DNA of 64,000 nucleotides, taken from positions 5,497 to 69,496 of the forward strand of contig JAQVRO010000001.1 of NCBI GenBank assembly GCA_028701035.1. The letters run 5' to 3'. This document shows, piece after piece, positions 2,163 through 64,000 of the stretch. Source of the DNA: Minisyncoccota bacterium. Lineage in GTDB: Bacteria > Patescibacteriota > Minisyncoccia > Minisyncoccales > CSSED10-335. Positions within the stretch are counted from its first letter, which is position 1. Each line of letters starts with the position of its first letter. The position numbers were made by a program, and so were the translations under genes. The notes beneath the pieces are model-generated. The model did no database searches, had not been told where the DNA came from, and worked only from the letters and a program-made list of their open reading frames with translations.

Positions 2163-2533
2163 ATTCCTAAAATAAAAGATAATATCATAATAAAAGGAAT
2201 TAGAATCCATGCCACGATTACTAAGCCACCCAAGAGAAACAAACTAAAACCAGAAACCACTCCAATAATAATTGTTAAAAACCTGACAAACCCACCCAGA
2301 ACCCGAGAGACAAAATTACCGAATAAAATATTAATATAATTCAATGGACCTGAGCTTCTTTCGTGAAACCAATTATAATTATGCCAATAGCAAAACATTG
2401 TTTTAAAAAGAAATCCAATAGAAAAGAAATTAAAGTTGAAAACAAGAATATCTTTAAAGGTTTTAATTATGAAAAAAGGGGCATCAACTAAATACCATTC
2501 AAACCAATTTATGATTATACTTTTTGATTTCAT
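2153..2533 (-). CDS. hypothetical small membrane protein (126 aa) immediately upstream of the Clp-like gene, probably co-transcribed with it
   Basis: ORF track entry with several hydrophobic segments (GGLVIVAWILIPFIMILSFILGIW). Its stop overlaps the downstream gene start by 10 nt. Confidence 0.4.
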   Translation of the reverse strand: MKSKSIIINWFEWYLVDAPFFIIKTFKDILVFNFNFFSIGFLFKTMFCYWHNYNWFHERSSGPLNYINILFGNFVSRVLGGFVRFLTIIIGVVSGFSLFLLGGLVIVAWILIPFIMILSFILGIWQ

Positions 2534-2647
2534 ATACTTAAAATCATTATACTTATTTTAAGGGTATTGACAAGAAAATCATCTTTCTTATAATGGCTCT
2601 TGTAAAGATAAAAGGTCGAAAACTACCTTTTTTAAAATAATAAAAAT

Positions 2648-2815
2648 ATGGTTATTGAAAAAACAATTATGCCACTTGTGGCACAAGACGAAGACGAGTT
2701 AGATGAAATAGAAGAAGATTTAGTAGAAGATGACATGGACGATGATTTACTAGATGATGATATTGACGATATAGAAGAGATAGAAGACGACCTCGAAGAC
2801 ATCACTGAAGAATAA
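2648..2815 (+). CDS. small, extremely acidic peptide (55 aa, almost entirely D/E/L/I)
   Basis: ATG at 2648 runs to TAA at 2813..2815 and is followed immediately by a strong intrinsic terminator. The antisense frame gives the Ser-rich ORF 2632..2895 in the track, which I consider a shadow ORF. Both are low complexity, so the protein-coding status itself is uncertain. Confidence 0.3.
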   Translation: MVIEKTIMPLVAQDEDELDEIEEDLVEDDMDDDLLDDDIDDIEEIEDDLEDITEE

Positions 2816-2821
2816 TTAAAA

Positions 2822-2846
2822 GACCGCCAAAAGGCGGTCTTTTTAT
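2822..2846. terminator. rho-independent terminator hairpin (GACCGCC-AAAA-GGCGGTC) flanked by A-run and T-run, likely bidirectional
   Basis: Perfect 7-bp GC-rich stem followed by TTTTT on plus and by an A-run (T-run on minus) on the other side. It sits between convergent features: the acidic peptide (+) and the histidine kinase (-). Confidence 0.6.
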
Positions 2847-2967
2847 AACCCAGGGAATTGATACAAAAATAACCAGATAACAACAACGGCAACAATAATT
2901 ATAATTATGTAATCACTAATATTCATACTTTAATAATATCAATTGTATTATAAAAAAACAAGAGGGT

Positions 2968-3918
2968 TTAAAAATTACCCTCCTTTATTTTGTATTTATC
3001 TTTTGAAACATAGATCTCAAACTTTGCTCCTTTACCATGCTCGCCTACTTCTCTGATAGAGATCCCTGTTATTGATAGAATCTCCTTGCAGAGGAAAAGG
3101 CCAAGCCCGGTGTTCTTGCCGAAACCTTTATGAAATATCCTTTCTTTATCAATATCAGGAACTCCGCATCCATCATCCAACCAAGTTATGACAAGGCCTT
3201 GATCGGACTCTTTGCATTTAATACAGACCTTAGTAGCAAGGCCATGCCTTCTACTGTTATCCAGTAAGTTATAAAAAACCTTACTAATCATAGGGTCGGC
3301 ATATATTTCTATGTTGCGACAATCATATCGTATATTTCCACGAAGATTTAATATAGTGCTCTCAAGAGAAACCCATGACAGGTCCTTACCTAAGTCGTCA
3401 TAGGCCCGAGTAAATTCAACAATCTCCTGAATTCCAGAGATTGATCTAGAGACTTCTTTAAGATACCTTGAAGAAGTCTCGTCAAGGGTATCTTCTCTTA
3501 TAAAATGAAGATACCCATTGGCTGCCATGATATAATTTAAAATATCATGGCGAGTGATTTGGGATAGAATCTGCAACTTTTCATTAGCAGACCTAAGAAC
3601 CTTTCCAAGCCTCTTCTTCTCTGTCATATCTTTAACAGAGATGATCACCTCCGACTCCGATGGAAAAACTCTTATATCAAAGATTTCTCCATTTAACTCA
3701 TACTCAACAAGTTCTGATTGTTGAGCGCGAACAACTCTTGCAACAACCTCTAAGGCCATCGCGAGATCGCCCTCCGGAATAATATCCGAAAGATGTTTTC
3801 CAACAATCGGTTCATTGGAAACCATTTTTACAATGTTTCCCGCTTCGTCAGTAATAATCACAATGTCCATAAACATTCCCCGCACCAAATTGTAAAAGTG
3901 CTGGCAATAGAATGCCAT
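2968..3918 (-). CDS. cytoplasmic sensor histidine kinase with a PAS-like N-terminal domain
   Basis: H-box region ITRHDILNYI. HATPase_c motifs DDGCGVP (G1) and GLGLFLCKEI (G2). No transmembrane segment. No response regulator is nearby. Confidence 0.75.
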   Translation of the reverse strand: MAFYCQHFYNLVRGMFMDIVIITDEAGNIVKMVSNEPIVGKHLSDIIPEGDLAMALEVVARVVRAQQSELVEYELNGEIFDIRVFPSESEVIISVKDMTEKKRLGKVLRSANEKLQILSQITRHDILNYIMAANGYLHFIREDTLDETSSRYLKEVSRSISGIQEIVEFTRAYDDLGKDLSWVSLESTILNLRGNIRYDCRNIEIYADPMISKVFYNLLDNSRRHGLATKVCIKCKESDQGLVITWLDDGCGVPDIDKERIFHKGFGKNTGLGLFLCKEILSITGISIREVGEHGKGAKFEIYVSKDKYKIKEGNF

Positions 3919-29921: not shown

Positions 29922-30021
29922 TAACTACATACTAGTATATTTTTTAACTCAGGTCAAGACTTAGTCTTATCCAACGCAACGATAGCATGAAATGCCCCCC
30001 GCTTTCCAATACAAGATTCCA

Positions 30022-30148
30022 TTAAGGAGCTAAGCTCCTTAATCCAACCTCCTTAACCTATACTTCGCTTAATTAAGGAGCTTAGCTCCTTAATCCGACC
30101 TCCTTAATTTCGTTAAGGGGCTTAGCGCCTTAATCTAGGCTCCTTAAG
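30022..30148. repeat. three tandem REP-like palindromic units. Each is a TTAAGGRGCT-N-AGCKCCTTAA core plus a TCYRACCTCCTTAA tail.
   Basis: Cores at 30022..30042, 30074..30094 and 30114..30134 read directly. Same family as the repeats at 53914, 56879, 56930, 57668, 57813 and inside the RAYT gene. Confidence 0.65.
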
Positions 30149-30189
30149 ACAATCTTATTTTCATACTCATTACTGGATTAAAAAATACT

Positions 30190-50863: not shown

Positions 50864-53842
50864 TTAAAATTTAAGGTCTAAGTCAGAGATATCAACTTCC
50901 TTTGGTTTTTCCTCTTTTTTAGTTTCAACTATTTTTTTGTCTTGTTGTTTATCCTCTGGCTCTTTTTGTTCTTCCTTAACTTCAATCTTTTTTTCAGCTA
51001 TAGCATCCTTTCTCTTGGCTTCTTGTTCTTCTTGGGCTCTCTTCTTAGCTTCGGCTTCTTTTTTTTGTTGCTCTATCTTTTTCAAGTAATCCTCGGCTTG
51101 TTCGTATATTGATTTAGCAGAGAAAAATCCAGCTTTCTTTTCAGGTTTGGTAGCTTTAGTTAATACTTCCTTAAATGCAGTAGCACTTTCTTCTAGCTTA
51201 TGACTATTATACATAGAAACTGCATTTTTGAAAAGACTATTAATTTCTAATTCTTTTTCTTTATCGACTTGTGGCCTCTCCTGTTGGACTTTAGCTATAA
51301 CTTCTCTTCTTTTAGATTCTTGTTCTTCTTGGGCTCTCTTCTTAGCTTCAGCTTCTTTTTTTTGTTGTTCTATCTTTTTCAAGTAATCTTCAGCTTGCTC
51401 GTATATTGATTTAGCAGAGAAAAATCCAGCTTTCTTTTCAGGCTTTGAGGCTTTAGTTAATACCTCTTTGAATGCAGTAGCACTTTCTTCTAACTTATGA
51501 CTGTTATACATAGAAACTGCATTTTTGAAAAGACTATTAATTTCTAATTCTTTATTTTTCTTTACTTCTTCTGCTTCTTTCTTTTGTTTTATCTTAAGAG
51601 CTTCTTCGGATTTTTTAAGATATTCTTCGGCTTGTTCATATAATGTTTTGGCAGAAAATAGTCCAGATTTTTTTTCGGGCTTAGGGTCTTTCTCCATTAC
51701 CTTTTTGAAACAAACTATACTTTCTTCTATCTTTTGATGATTATACAAAGATACCGCATTATTAAAAAGATTTTTAATTTCTAATTCTTTCTTTTTCTGG
51801 TCCTCCAACTCTTCTTGAGCTTTCTTCTTAGCCTCAGCCTCGGCTTTTTCTTTGGCGATTCTCTCGGCTTCAATTTTCTTCATTGCTTCTTCCCTGGCAC
51901 GCCTTTCTTCCTCTTGCCTCTTCTTAGCTTCAGCCTCAGCTCTTTGTTTATTCTCTTCTTCTTGTTTTCTCCATCTAAGTTCTTTTTCTGCCTTAATTAT
52001 ATAGTTTTCAGCTTTAAGTTTAAGAGAAATTCCTTTATCTTTAGATAAAGATACAAATATGTCTGGGTTTTGGTTGATTTTTTCTAATTTATTTAAAACA
52101 CTATTAAAGCCAACCAAGCTCTCTTCGAATTTACCTTGATCGAATAGATTAACCGAATCATCTATTATCTTGTTTAACTCTTGACGAACAAGCTCTTCTT
52201 TAGCTTTTCTTTCAAACTCATATTCAATTTCTTTTTTAGCCTCCTCTTTAGCTCTTCTTTCAATCTCCCGCCTTTCTGCATCTTGTTTTATCTTTGATAT
52301 TTGATTTTCAGCTTTTAAATATATTGGGTGATTTTTGTCTAGCTTGCTCATTAGTTGCTGAAACCCTTTCATGCAACTATCTAAGTCTCCATTTTGGTAT
52401 AGATTATTGCATCGCTCAAATTCATTAACAAGTTCTTTTTCTTTCTCTTCTTGGGCTCTTCTTGCTTCTTCCATTGATCTTTGCTCTTCTAATTCTTTTT
52501 GTTTTCTTAATTCTTCTGCCTCTTGAATACGCTTCTTCTCTTCTTCTTGCCTCTTCCACCTAATATCTTTCTCTGCTTTCAAGATGTAGTTCTCTGCTTT
52601 GAGTTTAAAAGATACTCCCGCGTCGGCTAGTGAAGTAAATTCGTTTAGCTTAGATAATACATTTTTAAAAGATACAATACTCTCTTCAAGTTTGCCTGAT
52701 TCGTAGAGAGAAATACCTTCAGCTAAAATGGAATTGAGCTCGACTCTTTGTTGTTCTTGTAGCTGGCGTTGCCTAGCTAGTTCTGCTTCCCTTTCTAGTC
52801 TTTCTTGTTCTTCTTTTTTAGCTCTTTCTTCTTGGGCTCTTCTTTCTTCTTCTTGCCTCTTCCACCTAATATCTTTCTCTGCTTTCAAGATGTAGTTCTC
52901 TGCTTTGAGTTTAAAAGACACTCCCTCGTCGGCTAGTGAAGTAAATTCGTTTAGCTTAGATAATACATTTTTAAAAGATACAATACTTTCTTCGAGTTTG
53001 CCTGATTCGTAGAGAGAAATACCTTCAGTTAAAATGGAATTAAGCTCAGCTCTTTGTTGTTCTTGTAGCTGGCGTTGCCTAGCTATTTCTGCTTCCTTTT
53101 CTAGTCTTTCTTGTTCTTCTTTTTTAGCTCTTTCTTCTTGAGCTCTTCTCGCTTCTTCTATTGCTCTTTGTTCCTCTAATTCTTTTTGTCTTCTTAATTC
53201 TTCTGCCTCTTGAGCCATTCTTCTTTCTTCTTCTTCTTTTTGTTGCTTAAGAATTCTGTGCTCTTCGTGCATCTTTTCGAGATCAATAGCACTATCAAGA
53301 TCTCTTAAGTTCTTTGTTAAAGTGTTAAGTTCTATTAAAGCCTTATCTGTTTTTTGTTTTAACTCAGCGATATTAGATTGTTCAACGCTATAATTCTCAG
53401 TTATTCTTTCAATGTTTTGAGCTCTTTTAGATATTTGACTTTCTAGTTGACCTACCTTCTCTTCTATTGCCCATCTTTTATCTTCTAGCTCTCTTCTTTT
53501 GTCTACCAATGCCCATCTTTCACGCTCAATCTTTCTCTTCTTTTCTATGTCATCAGTAGATGTTTCTTGGTTTTCAATATTCTCTTTTTCTTTATCGAGA
53601 ACTTCTTTTTCTTTTAAGATATATTCTATTTCTTTCGAAAGATTAGCTTTCTCGTCAACATCCTTAGTCATTGCTAATTCTTCAGCTTCTTTTTCCCTAA
53701 GAGCACTGTTTAGATATTCGTCTTTTACTTTTTTGAGTTCACTTAAACGCTCTGCTTCTTTTTGCAGAAGCGAAGAGTTTTGCTCAATTGATTTTTTTTG
53801 CAACTCCAACTCTTTTATTTTACTGTTGGTGATTTCTTGCAT
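50864..53842 (-). CDS. giant coiled-coil repeat protein (992 aa) with E/K/R/Q-rich heptad regions. Single TPR-like modules (SLYESGKLEESIVSFKNVL, SMYNSHKLEESATAFKEVL) are embedded between charged linkers. No signal peptide.
   Basis: ORF track. Two protein-level tandem duplications are mirrored by near-identical DNA repeats. Confidence 0.6.
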   Translation of the reverse strand: MQEITNSKIKELELQKKSIEQNSSLLQKEAERLSELKKVKDEYLNSALREKEAEELAMTKDVDEKANLSKEIEYILKEKEVLDKEKENIENQETSTDDIEKKRKIERERWALVDKRRELEDKRWAIEEKVGQLESQISKRAQNIERITENYSVEQSNIAELKQKTDKALIELNTLTKNLRDLDSAIDLEKMHEEHRILKQQKEEEERRMAQEAEELRRQKELEEQRAIEEARRAQEERAKKEEQERLEKEAEIARQRQLQEQQRAELNSILTEGISLYESGKLEESIVSFKNVLSKLNEFTSLADEGVSFKLKAENYILKAEKDIRWKRQEEERRAQEERAKKEEQERLEREAELARQRQLQEQQRVELNSILAEGISLYESGKLEESIVSFKNVLSKLNEFTSLADAGVSFKLKAENYILKAEKDIRWKRQEEEKKRIQEAEELRKQKELEEQRSMEEARRAQEEKEKELVNEFERCNNLYQNGDLDSCMKGFQQLMSKLDKNHPIYLKAENQISKIKQDAERREIERRAKEEAKKEIEYEFERKAKEELVRQELNKIIDDSVNLFDQGKFEESLVGFNSVLNKLEKINQNPDIFVSLSKDKGISLKLKAENYIIKAEKELRWRKQEEENKQRAEAEAKKRQEEERRAREEAMKKIEAERIAKEKAEAEAKKKAQEELEDQKKKELEIKNLFNNAVSLYNHQKIEESIVCFKKVMEKDPKPEKKSGLFSAKTLYEQAEEYLKKSEEALKIKQKKEAEEVKKNKELEINSLFKNAVSMYNSHKLEESATAFKEVLTKASKPEKKAGFFSAKSIYEQAEDYLKKIEQQKKEAEAKKRAQEEQESKRREVIAKVQQERPQVDKEKELEINSLFKNAVSMYNSHKLEESATAFKEVLTKATKPEKKAGFFSAKSIYEQAEDYLKKIEQQKKEAEAKKRAQEEQEAKRKDAIAEKKIEVKEEQKEPEDKQQDKKIVETKKEEKPKEVDISDLDLKF
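51005..51595. repeat. intragenic tandem duplication, 2 copies of ~296 bp, >90% identical
   Basis: Identical strings such as ttcttgttcttcttgggctctcttcttagcttc recur at 51022 and 51318. Each copy contains a T9 or T10 homopolymer. Confidence 0.7.
52480..53110. repeat. intragenic tandem duplication, 2 copies of ~308 bp, >90% identical
   Basis: tcttcttgcctcttccacctaatatctttctctgctttcaagatgtagttctctgctttgagtttaaaaga recurs at about 52545 and 52851. Confidence 0.7.
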
Positions 53843-53861
53843 GTTTATTATTTATATTTCT

Positions 53862-53889
53862 ATTATATACAATGTATATTTTTTTGCAA
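53862..53889 (-). promoter_or_regulatory. near-consensus sigma70 promoter TTGCAA-16-TATAAT driving the coiled-coil gene. Part of a ~75-bp cassette repeated at 57716..57790.
   Basis: On the minus strand, -35 at 53889..53884 and -10 at 53867..53862, with ATG at 53842. About 85% identical to the cassette upstream of the RAYT gene. Confidence 0.55.
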
Positions 53890-53913
53890 TAGTTCTTGCT
53901 GTTTAGCTTCTGA

Positions 53914-53934
53914 TTAAGGCGCTAAGCGCCTTAA
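53914..53934. repeat. REP-like palindrome TTAAGGCGCTAAGCGCCTTAA
   Basis: Perfect 10-1-10 palindrome immediately upstream of the promoter cassette. Confidence 0.65.
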
Positions 53935-54078
53935 TCTGCCATTGCCTTATTTTAAATATTTCAATATTATTTTATCACAAAAAATTAAAAAATCTAGCAC
54001 CTGATTAATTGGAGAAATAATTTATATGTTAATTCTCTGATATTAATTAATAAAATAATAAAAACGGCATCCACATAC

Positions 54079-54927
54079 TCAACACACATAGTATCTTCCC
54101 CTATCCTTCTTCACAATTCCTTTTAAGCAAAGAATAGAAAGCGTCGTGTTCGTCTGTGAAATATTCATCTCTATAATCTTACAAATACTGTTTGCATCCA
54201 TCGCTTCGCTTTTCAAAACATCAAAAACTTTCTTTTCGTTTTCTGAAAGTCCTTCTACTTTTTTTGCACTTCTTTTCTCTGAGCTTTTATTAAAAAAAGA
54301 AAGTATTTCTTCTGCTGAAAGAACACTCTTGGCCAATCCTTCTTTGATAATTCTGTTTGTCCCTTGTGATGTGGGATTAAATATAGAACCAGGGACGGCA
54401 AAAAGTTTTCTTTTGTATTTAACTGCTAAATTCACCGAAATAAGTGTTCCGCTTTTTTCTTCTGCTTCAACGGCAAGCACTGCTTTTGAAAGTCCAACAA
54501 CAATCCTATTTCTTTTTGGATAAGTCCACTTGCTAGGAGGGTATCCGTTATCAAACTCAGAAAGAATAAGACCCTTCTCTTCTATCTCTTTGTAAAGATC
54601 TCTTTGATAAGCAGGATGAATAACATCAACCCCACACGGCATAACAGCAATTGTTTTTCCACCCACACTTAACGCTGCACGGTGTGCCGCCGCATCAACG
54701 CCATACATAAATCCAGAAACAATAGTCACTCCTTCTTTAGCAACCTTTGAAACAATTTCCTCAACAACTCTCTTGCCATAACTAGTTATTCTCCTTGAAC
54801 CAACAACCGCCAAAGTATCACTAAAAATACTCTCATCAAAATCCCCTCTATAATTCAAAGCAACAGGAGCATCCTCAATCCCCTTTAAAATACTAGGATA
54901 GTTTTTATTATCAAGAAATATCTTCAT
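54079..54927 (-). CDS. dprA: DNA processing protein A (Smf)
   Basis: Rossmann-like core LAVVGSRRITSYGKRV...GVDAAAH and a C-terminal winged-helix domain. Confidence 0.8.
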   Translation of the reverse strand: MKIFLDNKNYPSILKGIEDAPVALNYRGDFDESIFSDTLAVVGSRRITSYGKRVVEEIVSKVAKEGVTIVSGFMYGVDAAAHRAALSVGGKTIAVMPCGVDVIHPAYQRDLYKEIEEKGLILSEFDNGYPPSKWTYPKRNRIVVGLSKAVLAVEAEEKSGTLISVNLAVKYKRKLFAVPGSIFNPTSQGTNRIIKEGLAKSVLSAEEILSFFNKSSEKRSAKKVEGLSENEKKVFDVLKSEAMDANSICKIIEMNISQTNTTLSILCLKGIVKKDRGRYYVC

Positions 54928-55267
54928 AATGCGTAATTCTCTCTACTCCCCCATTATTATTTAGCACAATACAAATCAAATCTATTCTGTATTGCCCCTT
55001 GTAGTTTTTTCTTTGAGCGTATCCTAATGCCCCTCTTCTTAATCTCCTTGTCTTATCTTTTTTGATTGTTTCTTCTGGACTACCAAATCTTTCGCTAGTT
55101 TTTGTTCTTACTTCCACAAAAACAAGCTCATCATCTTTACTAGCAACAATATCAATTTCTACATATTCTGTTTTGTAATTCCTTTCTAAGATCTGAAAGT
55201 CATTCTTTTGTAAGTATTCACAAGCAATATCTTCTCCTTTTATTCCTACATCTTGTTTGTTATGCAT
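54911..55267 (-). CDS. yraN: YraN family endonuclease (UPF0102, PD-(D/E)xK fold)
   Basis: GIKGEDIACEYL...ILERNYK...EIDIVA...VFVEVRT. Confidence 0.7.
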   Translation of the reverse strand: MHNKQDVGIKGEDIACEYLQKNDFQILERNYKTEYVEIDIVASKDDELVFVEVRTKTSERFGSPEETIKKDKTRRLRRGALGYAQRKNYKGQYRIDLICIVLNNNGGVERITHYEDIS

Positions 55268-55278
55268 TATAATCGTTA

Positions 55279-56805
55279 CTATTTTCTCGGTTCATCTAGG
55301 CGATACTGCAACGCCTCAGCAATATGCTCTATTTTTATTTCTTCACTTCGACCAAGATCAGCAATTGTTCGCGCAACTTTTATTACTTTAAAATATGCTC
55401 TCGCAGACAAGTGAAACTCCAACGAAGCACTGACTAAAACATCCTCTACTTCTTTAGATAAAGAAGCATACTTTTCTATCTGCTTGTTCTTCATTTCAGA
55501 GTTTGTAAAAATATTTTCCTCTTTAAACCTCTCTTTCTGTAATTCTCTTGCTTTCTCAACTCTCTTTCTTATCTCTTTTGACTTTTCATTATTTGCCCTC
55601 TTCTTTTCTTCCGCAGTTAATTTTTTAGTTTCTACATCGGGAACCTCTATATGAATATCAATCCGATCAAGCATCGGGCCAGAAACTCTTTTCCTATACC
55701 TTTCAACTTCTCTCTCAGTGCAACTACACTGTTTCTTTTCACTGTTAAGATATCCACAAGGGCAGGGATTAGCAGCAGCAACAAACATATATCGTGCGGG
55801 ATAAACAACACTCTCAATACTTCTTGAAATATTTACATATCCGTTCTCCATCGGTTGTCTTAGAGCTTCCAACGCCGATCTTTGAAACTCGTTTAGCTCA
55901 TCTAAAAACAATACTCCTCTATGGGCAAGTGTCACTTCTCCGGGCCGAGGACGAGTTCCTCCGCCAGTAAGTCCAATTGAAGATATCGTGTGATGTGGAG
56001 CACGAAAAGGACGATTTTGAATAAGCGAACTTCCCGGAGGCAGATTGCCAGAAACAGAATATATCTTTGTTACTTCAATTGACTCTTCTTCATTTAATTT
56101 TGGGAGAATCCCCGAAAAAGCTCTTGCAAGCATTGTTTTCCCACTTCCCGGACCACCAATCATAAACAAATTATGCCCTCCCGCTGCCGCTATCTCTAAG
56201 GCTCTCTTTGCTTCTTCTTGTCCTAAAACTTCTTCCATATCAAACTCACAGAAAAAATCCTCCTTCTGTTTCTTGTACTTCGCTCTTTCCGGCTGTTCCC
56301 TTCCACTTAAAAATGCTGTTAATTGCGAAAGATCTTTTACTGGATAAACATTTACTCCCGCCACTACCGACGCCTCGTTAGCCGAAAGCATAGGAAGAAA
56401 TATATTTTTGTATCCGTTTTCTTTTGCAAAAAGAGCAAGTGGAAGCGCTCCTTTTGTATGCCTCAACTCTCCATTTAAAGAAAGCTCTCCAAAGAACAAA
56501 CTTTTTTCAGGAATGGTTAAATTTAAAACCGAAGCAATAATTCCAGTAGCTATCGGCAGATCATAACAAGAACCATCTTTGGGAACATCAGCTGGAGCAA
56601 GGTTAACAATTATTCTCCTTCTGGGAAACTCTATTTTTGAGTTGCTTATTCCCGCCCGAACTCGCTCCTTACTCTCATCAACAACCTTCGCTGGAAGTCC
56701 AACAATATCAAAACTGGGAAGCCCCTTCTTCATCACATTGACTTCCACATCAACCCCAATAGAATTAAGGCCTAAATGAGCGACAGATGGTATCTTAATA
56801 AACAT
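55279..56805 (-). CDS. comM: Mg-chelatase-like AAA+ ATPase YifB/ComM
   Basis: N-terminal Lon-like domain, Walker A GGPGSGKTMLA, Walker B LFLDELNEF, and a C-terminal Mg-chelatase subunit ChlI domain. Confidence 0.85.
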   Translation of the reverse strand: MFIKIPSVAHLGLNSIGVDVEVNVMKKGLPSFDIVGLPAKVVDESKERVRAGISNSKIEFPRRRIIVNLAPADVPKDGSCYDLPIATGIIASVLNLTIPEKSLFFGELSLNGELRHTKGALPLALFAKENGYKNIFLPMLSANEASVVAGVNVYPVKDLSQLTAFLSGREQPERAKYKKQKEDFFCEFDMEEVLGQEEAKRALEIAAAGGHNLFMIGGPGSGKTMLARAFSGILPKLNEEESIEVTKIYSVSGNLPPGSSLIQNRPFRAPHHTISSIGLTGGGTRPRPGEVTLAHRGVLFLDELNEFQRSALEALRQPMENGYVNISRSIESVVYPARYMFVAAANPCPCGYLNSEKKQCSCTEREVERYRKRVSGPMLDRIDIHIEVPDVETKKLTAEEKKRANNEKSKEIRKRVEKARELQKERFKEENIFTNSEMKNKQIEKYASLSKEVEDVLVSASLEFHLSARAYFKVIKVARTIADLGRSEEIKIEHIAEALQYRLDEPRK

Positions 56806-56968
56806 AATACAATTTGATTAAATTCTAACAAATATAATACAATTATTAATACTTATTTAATCTCTATACTTCGCTTAATTAAGGCGCCTGGCGCCTTAAT
56901 CTAACCTCCTTAATTTATACTTCGCTTAATTAAGGCGCCTGGCGCCTTAATCTGAACTCCTTAATACT

Positions 56969-57640
56969 TTAATCCTTTTCTATTAAATATTTATCTATAT
57001 CTTTTTTATTACGGCTTTCCTCAATCACCATTTTGACAAACTTTTTATACTCCACTACCGAATTTGACCCTTGTGCTTCAGAAAAATGATCAAGAATAAT
57101 GTCTTTACTCGCAACCAAATCGTCTGGCCTTTCTCCTAAGAAATATCCATAGCTTGTCCATGGATAATCTTCAACATCAGCTATTTTATGAATTTGTGAA
57201 TTACCATTGATATAGGCAGACAGCCAAAGAAGATAATCATCATTATCAATATGAATTGCTTTGTAAGCTCCTTGGAATAATCTACCTGGGCGATTGTATT
57301 TTTTATTAATAAAATTAGTATAGCTGTGTCCTATTTTGTGTAAAAATTTAGAAATACCATCATCGGTTAATTGTTGTAATATCAAATGATAATGATTAGG
57401 TAATAAATTATAAGCATTTATTGTGACTATTTTTTCTAATCCCTCTAAGAAGGAGCTTAGCTCCTTAATATCTTTACGAGCCACAGATGCCCTTTCTTCG
57501 TAATAAGATTTATTATTAAAATCCTTTAAGCCTCTTTTAAACATTTTATAATCTTCGTCTTCTCTAAAAAGCAATGAATCAGCTACAGCTCGATTATAAA
57601 CATGATAGTATTCACCATTGGTAAATTTTATTTTTCTCAT
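56969..57640 (-). CDS. REP-associated tyrosine transposase (RAYT; IS200/IS605-like Y1 HuH transposase)
   Basis: N-terminal YHVYNRA motif, HuH motif LPNHYHLILQ, downstream conserved Tyr region RLFQGAYKAIHID. 223 aa. Flanked by REPs. Confidence 0.7.
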   Translation of the reverse strand: MRKIKFTNGEYYHVYNRAVADSLLFREDEDYKMFKRGLKDFNNKSYYEERASVARKDIKELSSFLEGLEKIVTINAYNLLPNHYHLILQQLTDDGISKFLHKIGHSYTNFINKKYNRPGRLFQGAYKAIHIDNDDYLLWLSAYINGNSQIHKIADVEDYPWTSYGYFLGERPDDLVASKDIILDHFSEAQGSNSVVEYKKFVKMVIEESRNKKDIDKYLIEKD

Positions 57641-57748
57641 ATAACTTTTTTCGTTAAGGAGCCTGGATTAAGGAGCCAGGCTCCTTAATCTAACCTCCTT
57701 AATTTGTTGCTGTTGGTTATTGCTTGCATATTTATTATTTATATCTCC

Positions 57749-57776
57749 ATTATATATAATGTGTATTCTTTTGCAA
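57749..57776 (-). promoter_or_regulatory. sigma70 promoter TTGCAA-16-TATAAT upstream of the RAYT gene (second copy of the cassette)
   Basis: On the minus strand, -35 at 57776..57771 and -10 at 57754..57749. The transcript would traverse the REP at 57706..57654 before the RAYT ATG at 57640. Confidence 0.5.
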
Positions 57777-57849
57777 GCGTTCAGTTGTTTGGTTCTTGGT
57801 TAAGGAGCCTGGGTTAAGGAGCCAGGCTCCTTAATCCGACCTCCTTAAT

Positions 57850-59547
57850 TTATTTGGTGGTCCAGGTGGGGCCGTCTCCAACAGGTAAGAGGGTTCCGTG
57901 GTTGTCGTTTCCGCTTCTGTCGTAGGCGGTTTCGCCTTGACCTTCGTTTAATGGCCAGTGGCCAACGAGGCCGTTTCTGATATCGTAGCCTTTGTAGAGT
58001 TGCTCTACTTCTTCTGCAGAGAGAGCTCGGTTGTATATACGGACATCGTCGATAAGACCGTCCCAAAAATAAATATCAATACCCCCCACTCTTAAAGGTC
58101 CTACTATATCAATACTTGTAGAATCGACCCTACTTCCTATAAAAGAATTGTCAATAAATAGATTTGCATTAGATCCATTTCTAGAAAAAAATAAATAATG
58201 CCACTCTCCATCATTGTAATTCTCAGTTGTTGTTATTCTATTCGTACCTCCCCCCATCCAATAAACCCAAACTCCGTAAGGCTCATTATTAAAATTAAAA
58301 GATATATTATTAGCACTATAACTTGATCCAAAATTTAAAGCATGCATCCTCTTATTTGATATTTCGCTTTTAAACCAGAAACCAACCGAAAGATTATTTG
58401 TCCCAAAATCCCAGGCAGAATCATTCGGAATATTCGCATAATCGTTAGTGCCGTCGAAGTTTAGGGCGATTTCGGGGGCGCCGGTGGAAACTTCTTTGGT
58501 TTCGTCTTCAGTGGATTTTAAGGAAATGTTTTTGGTGACGGGGTTTTGCCAAATGGTATATTTGCTAGAATATTCGTAGTTGTATAGGTCTTGGATTTCT
58601 TCTGCTGATAGTGCTCGGTTATAGATGCGGACATCGTCGATAAGACCTTCCCATGACTGAGTTGTACTCCCTGGAAGGACTTGCCCAAATACATCATTTT
58701 CAGTATTATCGCCTAAAGTATCCAGAGATCCTGTTTCAGTTCCAGTTAAATTGCCATTTTTATAAGCTTTATAGGTTGTGCCATTTTTTACCCATGTAAT
58801 GTGTGTCCACTCATTTTCGGAGATAGTTCCAAAGTTTCCTCCTGTCCAGATGTCAATCCAATTACTGCCGGAGCCACTATAAAAAGAAATATTCTCTCCG
58901 TATATACCGACATAAAGAACCCCTTCCTTAGAAAATACTCTGTGATGTCCTGATGAAATTGGAGTCTTTACCCATGCTCCCAAAGACACCTCTGTTAAGT
59001 TGCTAGGGATTTTTACATCTCCTAAATCAATATAATCGTTATCTCCATCAAAATCTAAAGCTTCGCCCATTTTACCATCTACCCATGTAGGCCCATTAAA
59101 CAAAGTCCCATGGTTTTCGTTGCCACTGGCGTCATAGGCAGTTGTTCCACTTCCCTCGTCGAACTTCCAGTGTCCAACAAGCCCATCGGTAATATTACTT
59201 CCAGATATACTTCCCTCTTTTGGATCAACTAAATACTTACTTAAGTAGTTTGGTTTTAAGCAATCATACAAGTCATACTCTCCTGGGCCTGTGCCGATTG
59301 CAGTAAACTTATCTTGTGGAAGTGGTCCACTAGGACAATTCCAACCTCTATCGTTTTTTACTTTCTGTTGCACAGAGAGTAATATACTATTTAAATCTGA
59401 TTCTCTTTGAGAATCTCTTTGCGCTTTGATTTTTCCTACTGGGTCTACTGCTACCACAAAGAAAACTCCAAATATTATCATAACGCCAACGACAATCAAT
59501 AGCTCTATATATGTAAACCCTTTTGTTTTGTATAAATATTCTTTCAT
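57850..59547 (-). CDS. pilin-like protein with type IV pilin N-terminus and two LamG (concanavalin-like, Laminin_G_3) domains. The 3' end appears truncated by REP insertion.
   Basis: KGFTYIELLIVVGVMIIF. Two copies of GLVGHW..EGSG..AYD.SGN.NHGTL....W.......DFDG.NDY and LIDDVRIYNRALSAEE. The gene ends ...GPTWTTK, and its TAA stop is the first triplet of the REP tail. Confidence 0.7.
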   Translation of the reverse strand: MKEYLYKTKGFTYIELLIVVGVMIIFGVFFVVAVDPVGKIKAQRDSQRESDLNSILLSVQQKVKNDRGWNCPSGPLPQDKFTAIGTGPGEYDLYDCLKPNYLSKYLVDPKEGSISGSNITDGLVGHWKFDEGSGTTAYDASGNENHGTLFNGPTWVDGKMGEALDFDGDNDYIDLGDVKIPSNLTEVSLGAWVKTPISSGHHRVFSKEGVLYVGIYGENISFYSGSGSNWIDIWTGGNFGTISENEWTHITWVKNGTTYKAYKNGNLTGTETGSLDTLGDNTENDVFGQVLPGSTTQSWEGLIDDVRIYNRALSAEEIQDLYNYEYSSKYTIWQNPVTKNISLKSTEDETKEVSTGAPEIALNFDGTNDYANIPNDSAWDFGTNNLSVGFWFKSEISNKRMHALNFGSSYSANNISFNFNNEPYGVWVYWMGGGTNRITTTENYNDGEWHYLFFSRNGSNANLFIDNSFIGSRVDSTSIDIVGPLRVGGIDIYFWDGLIDDVRIYNRALSAEEVEQLYKGYDIRNGLVGHWPLNEGQGETAYDRSGNDNHGTLLPVGDGPTWTTK

Positions 59548-59551
59548 ATTA

Positions 59552-60799
59552 TTAATATGGTTTTGTACTTTCGTATAATAACTTTACTTCGCTTGGAGAC
59601 AAAGCTCGGTTGTATATACGAACATCGTCGATTTGTCCGTTGAAATAATCGACCAGAGAAGACCCGATTAACAATGGATAATTATTATTTATATTATATG
59701 GCCCTGTGCCTGTTTTTCTGATTGTTGTTAGTGACTTAGACTCCCCATCAACATAAACATAATGATTATCCCCTTTTCTTATAGCAACAACATTGTGCCA
59801 ATTACCATCTATAATGTCATCAGTTGTATACAGACGCACTTCATTGTCTGTGTCAGCTCGAACCCACCAACTTATTTTTTTTGATTCACTATGAACTCCA
59901 CCGAATGTCACTGTACCAATATAAATACTAACAAAATTGTATGGATCTATGGACTGTCTTTTTAATACAAGGCCCGCTATCTGGTCATTATTCAGTGCTA
60001 AAAACCATAACGATATTGACAAATCACTTATATTTGGTCTTAATTCAGGAGTATCTCCAATCTCCACATAATCCCCAACTCCATCAAACTCCAGTGCTCT
60101 ATCTTCTTCAAAAAACCTATTCTCCGACCAATCTGGTGCTCCAACTAATGTTCCATGATTATCGTTTCCACTAAAGTCATAGGCTGTTAGTCCTTTACCT
60201 TCGTTAAATGTCCAGTGGCCTACAAGTCCATCTGTTAAAAGCTTATCCGAAGGCTTTGAATTCTTGGCTCTTAAAGTATAAGCAGATATGAATTGGTCTG
60301 AAAAGTCATATTCTGGATAATTCTGCGGATTATAATACGAGGCTCCAATGGTTATTTGTACCGAACCAGGATCTTTAGGAAGACCAACATTTCTAAAGGT
60401 AAGACTATCAATCACTATACTTGATGCTGTTATTTTCTCCTGAGGATAACCTGCCACCTTCATTACAATAGCTCCGTCTTCAAGCCAAAAGAGAACTGGA
60501 TCGTTTTCATTGTTTGTTCTAAGCCATAACATATTTCCTGTTCTACCAGGTAATACTATCGTATCTGCATTCCTTATCTCTGCACCAATCTTTTGCATTG
60601 CAAAACGAACATTGTATGTTACCTCTTCTACAATTTCAGAATTAGAACTAGATGATAAAACATTGACTGCAATACCACCCATAGCCAAAAGAATACCCGA
60701 AAGAAGAAATGTATAAACAAGAAACTCAATAAAAGTAAAGCCTCTCTCCCTTTTCTTATTTAAATTATATTCTTTTAGAATCATAGTATTACCTAACAA
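59552..60799 (-). CDS. pilin-like protein with LamG domain (paralog 2)
   Basis: RGFTFIEFLV prepilin motif. GLVGHWTFNEGKGLTAYDFSGNDNHGTL...FDGVGDYVEIG...IDDVRIYNRALSPSEV. Confidence 0.7.
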   Translation of the reverse strand: MLGNTMILKEYNLNKKRERGFTFIEFLVYTFLLSGILLAMGGIAVNVLSSSSNSEIVEEVTYNVRFAMQKIGAEIRNADTIVLPGRTGNMLWLRTNNENDPVLFWLEDGAIVMKVAGYPQEKITASSIVIDSLTFRNVGLPKDPGSVQITIGASYYNPQNYPEYDFSDQFISAYTLRAKNSKPSDKLLTDGLVGHWTFNEGKGLTAYDFSGNDNHGTLVGAPDWSENRFFEEDRALEFDGVGDYVEIGDTPELRPNISDLSISLWFLALNNDQIAGLVLKRQSIDPYNFVSIYIGTVTFGGVHSESKKISWWVRADTDNEVRLYTTDDIIDGNWHNVVAIRKGDNHYVYVDGESKSLTTIRKTGTGPYNINNNYPLLIGSSLVDYFNGQIDDVRIYNRALSPSEVKLLYESTKPY

Positions 60800-61892
60800 C
60801 TTCTATTCTGCCTTGACGACCAACATTAATTTTAACAGAATCGCTACCGTCACTTAGCTCAATAATATTATCATCTACACCATCAAGCCCAGATTCATAT
60901 ATCAACCTTATTTCTTCCGCTGTAAGAGCACGATTGTAGATGCGGATGTCGTCAATAGAGCCGTTAAAAAATTGAGCGTAACCAGATAACGAACCAAGAT
61001 AAAGATTGGCACTTCCCCAATTATTCATGGTTCCACTAAAGGCTATAGTAGCTACCTGCATTCCGTCTATATATAAAAATTTATTCGTTCCGTTCCAGAC
61101 CCCTACCACATTGTGCCAATTTCCATCATTATAAGTTAATGGTGAAGTTAAAGTATTTGAATTGCCCGTATCCGTTAGAGTATAAAACTTTATAATATTA
61201 TTAGTAGAATCATCAACGCCAATAGCGTAACTACTATGAGAAGTATCTAAACGACGAAAGATAAAACAGCGAGTATTTTGAGAAGTATTAAATTTTATCC
61301 ATTGCGATATTGAAACTTGTGTTGTAATTGAATCTAAGCTTGTTCCACTTCCGCAATTCACATAATCGTCTGTTCCATCGAAATCTAGCGCCCCGCCAAC
61401 CTTACCATTTGCCCATGTAGGATCGTTAACCAAAGTTCCGTGGTTCTCCTGACCACTTAAATCGTGTGCTACGCCTCCCTCCCCTTCGTTCATTGTCCAA
61501 TGACCAACCAAGCCCTCAATTTGGGGTTTACCGCTATTATCAAAAACAATCTCTGGAGCTCCAGCAATAGTTATGTCTGAATAAAGTTCAAACACTTCGT
61601 CATATAAAGGATCTCTTTCTTCATAAGAGTTACCTTTAAAAGATGTATATGTTTCTGGTGTAAAATATACTCCCCAAAGGCTATCATCTCTACCTTTCAT
61701 TGACTTTGCCTGTGTTTGTCTTAAAACACTTAATAACTGAGAAGCTTCTTCTTCAACGGATTGTTTTTTTAAAGAACCAAAGCTTATTGGTATTGTCATA
61801 GCTGACAACATTGCAATCATTGAAACAACAAGCATAAGCTCAATGAAAGTGAACCCTTTTTGTCTTTTGCTTTTTTTTATAATCCAAAACAT
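60789..61892 (-). CDS. pilin-like protein with LamG domain (paralog 3)
   Basis: KGFTFIELMLVVSMIAML. GLVGHWTMNEGEGGVAHDLSGQENHGTL...FDGTDDYVNCG...IDDIRIYNRALTAEEI. Confidence 0.7.
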   Translation of the reverse strand: MFWIIKKSKRQKGFTFIELMLVVSMIAMLSAMTIPISFGSLKKQSVEEEASQLLSVLRQTQAKSMKGRDDSLWGVYFTPETYTSFKGNSYEERDPLYDEVFELYSDITIAGAPEIVFDNSGKPQIEGLVGHWTMNEGEGGVAHDLSGQENHGTLVNDPTWANGKVGGALDFDGTDDYVNCGSGTSLDSITTQVSISQWIKFNTSQNTRCFIFRRLDTSHSSYAIGVDDSTNNIIKFYTLTDTGNSNTLTSPLTYNDGNWHNVVGVWNGTNKFLYIDGMQVATIAFSGTMNNWGSANLYLGSLSGYAQFFNGSIDDIRIYNRALTAEEIRLIYESGLDGVDDNIIELSDGSDSVKINVGRQGRIEVVR

Positions 61893-61904
61893 ATTTTAGT
61901 GATA

Positions 61905-64000
61905 TTAACGGTTAACATGATACTCTAAACCTCTTTGGTACAAAAACTTTATTTCGTCTTCTGTGAGAGCACGGTTGTAGATGCGAACATCGTCTATAAG
62001 GCCGTTAGTATAATCAACATTAGCCTGATCTCTTTTTCCGATCCATAAGTCATCATCACCAGCAACAACTGCTTTAGGTGTTCCAGAATAAGAACCATTA
62101 ATATATTGTCCATCTATATAAAGCGATAACGTAGTTCCACTCCAAGTCATCATATAATGATGCCAATTATTATCTTGTAGAACTGTATGTCTTTTGTAGT
62201 AACCATCACTCGCCATCATGTCTATCGTTCCGTTATTATGGGATGAATAATAAACCTGATAACCTTCTAATTGATCATGGTTTGCATTCTTTTTCGAAAT
62301 CATGAAACTGCTGTCTATTCCAACTGTTCCTTGAAATTTACTCCACAATGATATTGATAAATCGCTATCTAGCGCCAAACTCGCATCATTTCCCACATCC
62401 ACATAATTTCCGACTCCATCGAAGTCCAAAGATTTGTCGTGGCGGCCATCTACCCATCTAGTGTATCTTATGATAACAATGCCAGAACCACCAGAACCAC
62501 CATCTCCAATGGGAGTAGTGTCGCTATGAGCACCTCCTCCTCCTCCACCACCACCTGTATTGGACAAAGCATCTTCTCCTTTCTGTTCTTCACTACTTGA
62601 AGTGTCATATCCATCACCTCCGTCACCACCACCTCCAGATCCTCCCTCCCCAGGGTTAACTCTATCTATAGTGGCATCGTTTCCCCCAATTGCACCACCT
62701 CCACCACCTGCGAACCAACCATATTCTCCATAATTATCTCCGAAAGTATGACCAAAATAAAGACCGTCTCCACCATCTTGAGCAACTGTTCCATCTGAAG
62801 AACCTCCTGGTTCTGAAGCACCTCCACCACCTGCCGAACTACCACCAGGACCATAATAATCCCCCCCCTTATTTCCTTGATTAAGGGTTCCTGCGCCACC
62901 CTCAACAGGATGATCAACATGCCTTGCACCTCCTCCACCGGATCCTCCACTATGTGGACTATTCTCAGAGATATTGTCAATGCTTGCACCCCTTCCACCC
63001 CCTACTGCTACAAGTGTATCGAATACTGAATTTTCACCATCTTGAGGAGCAGTGTCATTGTACCCACCTGCCCCGCCGTCACCGACATTAATTGAGATAC
63101 TACTTCCTGAGACTACATTGTATGAATCATCGAAAATCAACCCTCCAGCTCCTCCGCCGCCGCCGGCAGTATGATGATAGGTGCCACCATTATTAAGTCC
63201 ACCTCCTCCGCCGCCGCCGACAACAAGAACATCTACTTCCGTTACTCCTTCTGGCACAGTCCAGGTGTGACTACCTACTGTGGTAAAAGCTTCTATACCA
63301 ACATACTTTCCTTTAGAGCCACCTCTCTTGGCTCCATAAATAGTGCCATGATTATTATTCCCAGAACTATCAACAGCTAAATCACCAAATGTTTCATCCA
63401 TATCCCAATGACCGACTAAACCATCTGTGATGTTTTCTGTTTCGTTATAAAGTTTTTGAATTTCTGTTTCTGACAAAGCTCGGTTATAAATGCGGACATC
63501 ATCAATGAGACCATCAAAAAAACTAATCCAATCGCTACCGTTATACCTGCCCCCTATAGTAAAATAATTAGCGCCTTTTTTTAAAGTAGAATCTGATATT
63601 ATAGCACTATTTACAAAAACTCCATCAACATAAATACTGGCTTCTTTGGTAGAGCTATCAAACACACCAACAAAATGAATCCAATCATTAGTTTTTGAAA
63701 TTCCAGAACTAATCTCATAATAACCAGTGCTATCTCTAACAAGAAAAATAAACTCTCCACTTTCATTTATTCTTAAATCATACTGCTCCATTGAATTCTG
63801 TGCTCTTCCAGCGATAATAGTCCATGTATTCGGAACAGTATTTGCTTTTACCCAAGACGAAATAGTAACAGATCCATCTACTTCTGTTTCTGAAGAAGCT
63901 CCCATTGTCACATAATCGTCCACTCCGTCAAAATCTAAATATGATTCTCTATCGTCCGATGCCTCGTTATAAACAGCAGTGCCTCTGCCCTCATTCATTG
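61905..64000 (-). CDS. LamG-domain protein with a long Gly-rich low-complexity region (paralog 4), 5' end off window
   Basis: The ORF is open to the window edge. Three LamG-like modules (LDFDGVDDYV..IDDVRIYNRALSETEI; GLVGHWDMDETFGDLAVDSSGNNNHGTI; LDFDGVGNYVDVG..IDDVRIYNRALTEDEI). G-rich 62450..63260 with a G8 tract. Confidence 0.6.
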   Translation of the reverse strand, partial: MNEGRGTAVYNEASDDRESYLDFDGVDDYVTMGASSETEVDGSVTISSWVKANTVPNTWTIIAGRAQNSMEQYDLRINESGEFIFLVRDSTGYYEISSGISKTNDWIHFVGVFDSSTKEASIYVDGVFVNSAIISDSTLKKGANYFTIGGRYNGSDWISFFDGLIDDVRIYNRALSETEIQKLYNETENITDGLVGHWDMDETFGDLAVDSSGNNNHGTIYGAKRGGSKGKYVGIEAFTTVGSHTWTVPEGVTEVDVLVVGGGGGGGLNNGGTYHHTAGGGGGAGGLIFDDSYNVVSGSSISINVGDGGAGGYNDTAPQDGENSVFDTLVAVGGGRGASIDNISENSPHSGGSGGGGARHVDHPVEGGAGTLNQGNKGGDYYGPGGSSAGGGGASEPGGSSDGTVAQDGGDGLYFGHTFGDNYGEYGWFAGGGGGAIGGNDATIDRVNPGEGGSGGGGDGGDGYDTSSSEEQKGEDALSNTGGGGGGGGAHSDTTPIGDGGSGGSGIVIIRYTRWVDGRHDKSLDFDGVGNYVDVGNDASLALDSDLSISLWSKFQGTVGIDSSFMISKKNANHDQLEGYQVYYSSHNNGTIDMMASDGYYKRHTVLQDNNWHHYMMTWSGTTLSLYIDGQYINGSYSGTPKAVVAGDDDLWIGKRDQANVDYTNGLIDDVRIYNRALTEDEIKFLYQRGLEYHVNR

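Follow-up and report, generated by a model that had tools for sequence, protein, structure and literature searches.

A partial copy of the 5' region of a coiled-coil gene, lying between REP hairpins upstream of a RAYT-like transposase gene and probably acting as its promoter, in a Minisyncoccota bacterium

Upstream regions that recur in front of unrelated genes have been described as putative mobile promoters (Matus-Garcia, Nijveen and van Passel, 2012); as summarised in PMC3575422, such regions have an identity of 80% or higher over 50 nt or more, precede unrelated genes within one genome and occur mostly as pairs, and according to the authors they can run into the coding sequence and could have a link with small mobile repeats. 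Correia elements and ERIC, cited in the same source, are small repeats that can place promoters upstream of genes and that may overlap ORF starts (PMC3575422). REP clusters are known to recur along with stretches of the DNA that flanks them (PMC3733652), and a promoter or transcription-factor role of REPIN/RAYT systems has only been speculated upon (PMC8049555). In the literature searched, no paper on RAYTs in Patescibacteria was found.

The locus described here lies in the window (the whole stretch of 64,000 nucleotides that was analysed), where a promoter-like segment is found in front of a coiled-coil gene (copy 1) and again in front of a RAYT-like transposase gene (copy 2). With 86% identity over 76 nt, or 88% over a core of 67 nt, the two copies fall within the range of identity and length of mobile promoter pairs, and the downstream genes are not paralogues: the RAYT is a Y1_Tnp transposase, and the gene of the coiled-coil/TPR protein had only its first 7 codons copied. 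Mobile promoters, however, were defined on positions -150 to -50, with no coding sequence, whereas copy 1 reaches from about -70 to +23 relative to its own gene. The locus also departs from that class in other ways: it reveals its donor and the direction of copying, the donor's start codon and 7 of its codons were copied along, the receiving gene encodes a RAYT, and REPs lie at both ends of the copy. As in REP/RAYT systems (REPtrons, REPINs, BIMEs), a single-copy Y1 HUH gene is tightly flanked by cognate REP hairpins and further REPs are dispersed in intergenic DNA. In contrast with those systems, the REPs are AT-rich TTAAGG(A/C)GC palindromes in one orientation in a Patescibacteria genome, the segment between the REPs is a copy of a distant, predicted host promoter rather than local flanking DNA, and the RAYT scores below the NCBIfam equivalog cut-off. 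In Correia elements and ERIC the promoter is part of a multi-copy repeat, whereas here the promoter segment was present twice and most REPs were without it. The copying of a promoter at this locus is a further example of a kind of event that is already known. The features of the region are the following.

53820..53912, minus strand: copy 1, putatively the coiled-coil gene's native 5' region, which is conserved in loci L003, L004 and L014 in front of the orthologue; it consists of a 23-nt spacer, a -35 box TTGCAA (53889..53884), a 16-nt spacer, a -10 box TATAAT (53867..53862), a 19-nt leader, an ATG (53842..53840) and codons 2-8.
53913..53938, core 53914-53934: simple REP hairpin TTAAGGCGCTAAGCGCCTTAA upstream of copy 1 (family D9).
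50864..53842, minus strand: 992-aa coiled-coil/TPR gene of the pilus/competence cluster, with its start within copy 1.
57707..57799, minus strand: copy 2, a putative partial duplicate of copy 1, with a -35 box TTGCAA (57776..57771), a -10 box TATAAT (57754..57749), a leader, an ATG (57729..57727) and 7 homologous codons.
57685..57729, minus strand: 14-codon ORF MQAITNSNKLRRLD opened by the copied ATG, with its stop codon in the 5' arm of a REP hairpin.
57647..57708, core 57668-57688: nested REP hairpin that separates copy 2 from the start codon of the RAYT (family D5; predicted -28.9 kcal/mol, z -5.3).
57793..57854, core 57814-57834: nested REP hairpin upstream of copy 2 (family D5), 90% identical to 57647-57708.
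56969..57640, minus strand: RAYT-like Y1 (HUH) transposase gene, 223 aa, with the Pfam Y1_Tnp domain and the HUH motif.
57447..57472: REP-like palindrome AAGGAGCTAAGCTCCTT within the RAYT ORF, encoding KELSSF (family D9).
56858..56970: two tandem 51-nt REP units between the RAYT stop and the ComM/YifB gene (families D5 and D7).
30001..30150: cluster of three REPs without the cassette, a control for the linkage of REP and cassette.

All genes of the region lie on the minus strand. LamG-domain pilins (57850-59547 and further upstream) are followed by a REP, copy 2, a second REP and the transposase (56969-57640), then by the two tandem REP units, ComM/YifB, YraN, DprA, a REP and copy 1, and finally by the 992-aa coiled-coil/TPR protein and a PilM-like protein. 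The LamG pilin gene ends in a stop codon (57850) directly next to the REP at 57793..57854, and the nearest homologues of ComM carry the labels Patescibacteria or Pacebacteria. Other repeats were seen in the structural genes. A tandem family of LamG-domain pilin-like genes lies ahead of the RAYT and is marked by six copies of a 74-nt motif (57992-63518) that encodes ...DDVRIYNRALS... and is 64-81% identical to the reference copy. The coiled-coil gene carries long internal direct repeats between 50993 and 53213 (units of 278-300 nt, 90-96% identity) and its product measures 791, 830 and 992 aa among close relatives; these repeats and the varying length suggest ongoing repeat expansion and contraction.

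The transposase reached 31.1 bits against Pfam Y1_Tnp (cut-off 23) and 31.5 bits against NCBIfam REP_Tyr_transpos, under the equivalog cut-off of 80, and there was no sequence match in PDB; it was named RAYT-like on account of these two last results. It displays NHYH at residues 82-85 and an invariant Tyr143 placed 58 residues past the last His, a spacing within a reported range (PMC6006769). The transposase of the window is a member of a divergent RAYT-like group. One RAYT copy was present in the window, with REPs on both sides (57647-57854 and 56858-56970) and further REPs at 30021-30150 and at 53913-53938. Where a conserved GTAG or CGTC tag was looked for, the hairpins are preceded on their 5' side by a variable YAG/CGG (TTAG, TCAG, GCAG and TCGG, and GTAG in one copy of L004), with no fixed GTAG. 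A RAYT occupies the slot between LamG pilins and ComF/ComM in L003, L004-L006, L010, L011, L015 and L022; as compared with 56969-57640 in the window, the slot genes lie at 312-1046 in L010, 602-1324 in L011, 3395-4120 in L015 and 7476-8216 in L022. The use of the same pilus/competence slot despite completely different REPs implies a long vertical residence with co-evolving REPs. The RAYT of L015 is directly preceded by a gene set (447-3099) that resembles a diversity-generating retroelement and comprises bAvd/23S_rRNA_IVP proteins and an RVT_1 reverse transcriptase.

An earlier note on this DNA had reported about 75 bp with some 85% identity in two places, and the duplication was confirmed. 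A repeat search (family D18) aligned 53820-53895 with 57707-57782 without gaps at an offset of 3887, and a 46-nt degenerate consensus of the cassette had two sites in the window, copy 1 and copy 2, and no match in 100 dinucleotide shuffles; blastn-short of the cassette in the window gave nothing above noise beyond the two copies. The intervals that had been given for the repeat were nevertheless out of register (53843 pairs with 57730 and not with 57716), and the homologous segment, which had been taken to stop at the start codon, was found to cover the ATG and 7 further codons. The repeat runs 23 nt into the 992-aa ORF, with the ATG at 53842 and the equivalent ATG at 57729. In relation to the RAYT start, copy 2 spans about -67 to -159. 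The sigma70-like arrangement that had been pointed out in both copies was also recovered, as TTGCAA-16 nt-TATAAT on the minus strand (53889..53862 and 57776..57749; 10/12 each in a consensus scan), and both promoter-like copies face minus-strand genes.

The position of the REPs agreed with what had been stated before, with one upstream of each copy (cores 53914-53934 and 57814-57834) and one between copy 2 and the RAYT start (core 57668-57688; start at 57640). The palindrome TTAAGGMGCnnnGCKCCTTAA is located about 24 nt upstream of each -35 box, the distance from the REP edge to the box being 24 vs. 23 nt in the two copies; similarity was weaker along this spacer, where 118 of 5000 shuffles gave an equal score. 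The downstream end of the homology of copy 2 coincides exactly with the start of the next REP unit, at a junction that reads ...ACCAACAG followed directly by CAACAAATTAAGGAGG and displays CAACA microhomology.

Both copies were also found in L003, an ENA sample (assembly ERZ27315056) whose RAYT is 98% identical; over 93 nt, copy 2 was 100% and copy 1 98.9% identical to the window. A chimeric join at REP repeats, that is, an assembly artefact, has a practically negligible chance: misassembly is promoted by repeats, but L003 was assembled independently with the same arrangement, which excludes such an artefact, and copy 2 was identical over the 93 nt though the REP loops differ. The orthologous REPs of the two assemblies (57668-57688 and 57814-57834 in the window; 552-604 and 698-750 in L003) have GCCTGGC and GCTTAGC, respectively, as their central bases, whereas the sequence around them, copy 2 included, is 97-100% identical. 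These differing centres in near-identical surroundings suggest rapid conversion among REP copies.

In a sister lineage (L004-L007 and L014; RAYT 86%, ComM 94%; L004-type genome in samples 3300036969 and ERZ27249274) copy 1 was present before the orthologous coiled-coil gene with 90% identity over 70 nt, a degenerate homologue of its REP hairpin occupied the same place, and the coiled-coil orthologue of L004 aligned from residue 1 (MQEITN). Copy 2 was not found in the sister-lineage loci L004-L007 and L014, and was seen in the window and L003 only. The frame of copy 2 leaves the coiled-coil sequence after codon 8 and ends at 14 codons, within the REP. Because the start of the orthologue is conserved in a lineage without copy 2, and because the frame of copy 2 breaks off after codon 8 into REP, copy 1 appears to be the native 5' region and copy 2 a truncated copy; we strongly infer that copying proceeded from copy 1 to copy 2. 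Judged from these loci, the duplication is small and lineage-specific, and is a one-off, non-tandem and partial one. The gene after DprA in L010 and L011 was considered as an orthologue with another 5' end, which would have left room for a delivery of the cassette; it turned out to be unrelated (E = 2.2) and uninformative on direction.

It is highly improbable that copy 2 is the stump of a coiled-coil paralogue truncated by the insertion of RAYT and REP. The start codon and 7 homologous codons retained in copy 2 are what such a stump would keep, but no more coiled-coil-like sequence was present past the REP, copy 2 is absent from L004-L007, and the same RAYT slot (after LamG pilins and before ComF/ComM) occurs without any such gene in lineages with three REP types. 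The timing of the truncated copy was approached through a three-way comparison of 67 core positions (copy 2, copy 1 of the window and L004), which is unrooted and has no outgroup. Seven states were common to copy 2 and copy 1 of the window against L004, two were common to copy 2 and L004 against copy 1 of the window, and private substitutions amounted to 6 in copy 2 and 2 in copy 1 of the window. This pattern fits a duplication within the lineage of the window and a subsequent faster change in copy 2. Since a comparison of three sequences cannot be rooted, copy 2 could alternatively be older than the divergence of the L004 lineage, in which it would then have been replaced.

The REP had been read in the earlier note as travelling with a portable promoter. 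A mobile, REP-linked promoter cassette delivered independently to the RAYT and to the coiled-coil gene is improbable. It would account for the presence of a REP some 24 nt before the -35 box in both copies, for the weak similarity of the spacer up to the REP edge and for the REPs that bound copy 2 on both sides; against it, copy 1 reaches 23 nt into a conserved ORF and does so at the orthologous gene of a lineage without copy 2. Moreover, the window has eight extragenic REP cores, of which only three are next to the cassette (one upstream of copy 1 and two flanking copy 2) and the other five are without it; no cassette lies alongside the REP clusters at 30021-30150 and at 56858-56970. The REP subtypes differ as well, the one by copy 1 being of the simple TTAAGGCGC type and the two by copy 2 being nested TTAAGGAGCC hairpins.

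A wider search for the cassette, which had been proposed along with the portable promoter, also spoke against it. The cassette had two copies in the 64 kb of the source genome covered by the count, and may have more elsewhere in that genome. The collections were scanned by exact match to a degenerate pattern, a procedure that misses diverged copies: in GTDB (185,579 genomes, 26-nt cassette pattern) it gave two AT-rich chance matches, in a spirochaete MAG and in Lysinibacillus; in JGI metagenomes (49-nt tolerant pattern) it gave one match, L014, which is the orthologous copy 1 of an L004-type organism; and in IMG/VR the scan for the cassette gave no matches. Of the "promoter capture or delivery" suggested before, capture at the RAYT remains reasonable, while delivery to the coiled-coil gene is not supported, copy 1 containing the gene's own start and 7 codons. 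The copy event is, by its predicted function, a capture of a promoter by the RAYT and not a delivery.

On balance, we consider it probable that copy 1 is native and that copy 2 is a one-off partial duplicate bounded by REPs, which arose in a REP-associated event and probably provides the RAYT promoter. The donor would have been the 5' end of the coiled-coil gene, with its native promoter, short leader and first coding positions (copy 1). The segment copied, once and in the window's own lineage, would have run from the roughly 24 nt that adjoin the REP through the -35 and -10 boxes and the 19-nt leader to the ATG and 7 codons; it would have landed in the spacer between the pilin and the RAYT, with a nearly identical REP hairpin on either side. 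A REP-associated origin of copy 2 is most likely because both of its ends coincide with REP edges, and the involvement of REPs in making the copy is accordingly graded as likely. The route may have been ssDNA cleavage and joining by the RAYT, or else template switching or illegitimate recombination at the REP hairpins, with the CAACA microhomology at the downstream junction; as for the agent, the sequence does not discriminate between the RAYT, template switching at hairpins and ordinary illegitimate recombination.

Copy 2 most likely supplies the promoter of the RAYT, a predicted role that is based on the intact state of both hexamers and the ATG. Over 67 columns of five homologous sequences, 16 columns were variable, none of them among the 12 hexamer positions (P = 0.026) nor among the hexamers plus the ATG (P = 0.009). 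Intact hexamers in copy 2 considered alone are weak evidence, as 12 unchanged positions are expected in around 16% of cases at 86% identity (0.86^12), and so is a promoter match alone, sigma70-like sites of at least 9/12 numbering 23 in 6 kb vs. 15.6 expected. Promoter-like sites are enriched in intergenic DNA, 11/28 of them falling in the non-coding 10% of the window. Several of them are located 4-28 nt from start codons, with several -10-like boxes at 4-20 nt, and of the window's 59 crude gene calls only 3 had a Shine-Dalgarno-like motif. Given these promoter-like sites near starts and the few Shine-Dalgarno motifs, a -10 box 19 nt before the ATG would be normal here; short-leader or leaderless expression is plausible in this organism, and the scarcity of Shine-Dalgarno motifs together with the close -10-like boxes suggests that its mRNAs are mostly of these kinds. 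No other promoter-like sequence was found between copy 2 and the ATG of the RAYT, a stretch that is all REP. The predicted transcript would have a leader of about 12 nt, then the 14-codon uORF ending in the REP hairpin and, 46 nt further on, the RAYT ORF; any transcript started at the copy 2 promoter would carry the nested REP hairpin at 57647..57708 in its 5'-UTR.

Other lineages carry different sequences at this place. In L004-L007 an unrelated, promoter-like insert of 98 nt, X, lies between the REPs upstream of the RAYT (299-396 in L004) and comes with a promoter-like TGCTACAAT box of its own and an ORF of 9 codons; no donor of insert X was matched in the window or in any locus examined. 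L010 (166-245) and L015 (3237-3333) present a terminator hairpin and then TTGACA-17-TATACT, in the same layout of REP, promoter, REP and RAYT. These differing inserts suggest that a promoter is maintained upstream of the RAYT while its sequence turns over.

The alternative that copy 2 is a neutral by-product of REP recombination, with the RAYT transcribed by read-through from the upstream pilin operon, is unlikely, although it deserves some weight. Neighbouring genes are all co-oriented, and read-through from the pilin gene is possible because the REPs lack a T-run and are not terminator-like. The RAYT homologues of L020 (61-nt spacer after recA) and L011 do without a recognisable promoter of their own, and the larger number of private substitutions in copy 2 (6 vs. 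2 in copy 1 of the window, over 67 nt) would also fit neutrality. Yet copy 2 has kept both hexamers, the distance between them and the ATG intact, two of its private changes complete a 14-nt palindrome over the -10 box, and each of three lineages has a different promoter-like sequence between the REPs, which suggests selection for a promoter there.

Some further sequence features were recorded around copy 2. The palindrome across its -10 box, CATTATATATAATG (57748-57761), is perfect over 14 nt and was made by 2 of the 6 private substitutions; it is imperfect in copy 1 and in the L004 copy, where it reads CTATTGTATATAATAG. It may be an operator, or just an AT-rich chance occurrence. Every REP unit has, on its sense (minus) strand, the Shine-Dalgarno-like sequence AAGGAGG in perfect form, which the nested hairpin sequesters in part (57693-57706, 57839-57852, 56904-56916, 30043-30056 and other REP tails). 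In a search for an RNA family in 53500-58200 (Rfam, E <= 1), three sub-threshold sRNA matches of at most 27 bits were obtained, as compared to a gathering score of 60; no Rfam family accounts for the segment, and an RNA family was rejected as its explanation.

REPs were present not only around but also within the RAYT gene, and the palindrome in the RAYT ORF of the window is no chance occurrence. In the eleven RAYT genes examined, an in-frame palindrome was located in one homologous variable loop, 10-25 residues before the HUH motif (57447-57472 in the window, 784-806 in L011, 3592-3608 in L015, 3177-3195 in L023, 3154-3209 in L026 and 3188-3220 in L027). It contained GC in 9 of the 11 genes, and was decayed in L004 and AT-only in L022. 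At least four unrelated palindrome sequences were present at this loop, and the palindrome matched the lineage's own REP wherever flanking REPs exist, except in L022. The loop palindromes and the REPs flanking the respective genes were as follows.

Window, L003, L020 and L023/L024: loop palindrome AAGGAGCTnAGCTCCTT; flanking REP of the same sequence.
L011: loop palindrome TTCCCGAGGTGAGACCTCGGGAA; flanking REP of the same sequence.
L010 and L015: loop palindrome of the (C)AAGGTCGGACCTATG type; flanking REP of the same type.
L026: perfect inverted doublet with a 27-bp stem in the loop; no flanking REP within 200 nt.
L027: 15-bp stem in the loop; no flanking REP within 200 nt.
L004: loop palindrome decayed; flanking REP present.
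L022: AT-only loop palindrome; flanking REP unrelated to it.

With another palindrome the loop also encodes another peptide (KELSSF, NSRGETSGN, SIGRTYE, KPDSSILEESGS); as the peptide follows the palindrome and not the reverse, selection appears to act on the nucleic-acid hairpin. REPs inside other genes are known (PMC3733652), and no description of a conserved cognate REP within the RAYT gene itself was found in the literature searched. It may be speculated from the intragenic, 5'-UTR and 3' REPs that the RAYT acts on its own gene or mRNA. This intragenic cognate REP is possibly the more valuable lead, as a handle on the matching of RAYT and REP and on the control of RAYT expression.

A broader reading, which we regard as doubtful, is that the REP pair upstream of the RAYT constitutes an exchange site where the RAYT pastes REP-bounded host DNA, which would have left three unrelated promoters in three lineages, and that the intragenic, lineage-matched REP together with the 5'-UTR and 3' REPs allows the RAYT to target its own gene. 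If the exchange site were real, the system would mobilise non-REP cargo, namely a host promoter with its start codon; if the gene were targeted by its own product, an autoregulatory or self-processing circuit would be implied.

Returning to copy 2 as a REP-bounded duplicate that probably provides the RAYT promoter, its significance is modest because it is a single two-copy event with promoter activity that is predicted only. It offers a concrete case of directional promoter reuse that can be read from sequence, with a pilus-cluster gene as the putative donor, a domesticated transposase as the recipient and breakpoints at REP hairpins, in Patescibacteria, a phylum with poorly known regulation and mobile DNA. 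If the REP/RAYT machinery made the copy, this would be evidence that REP systems move host regulatory DNA.
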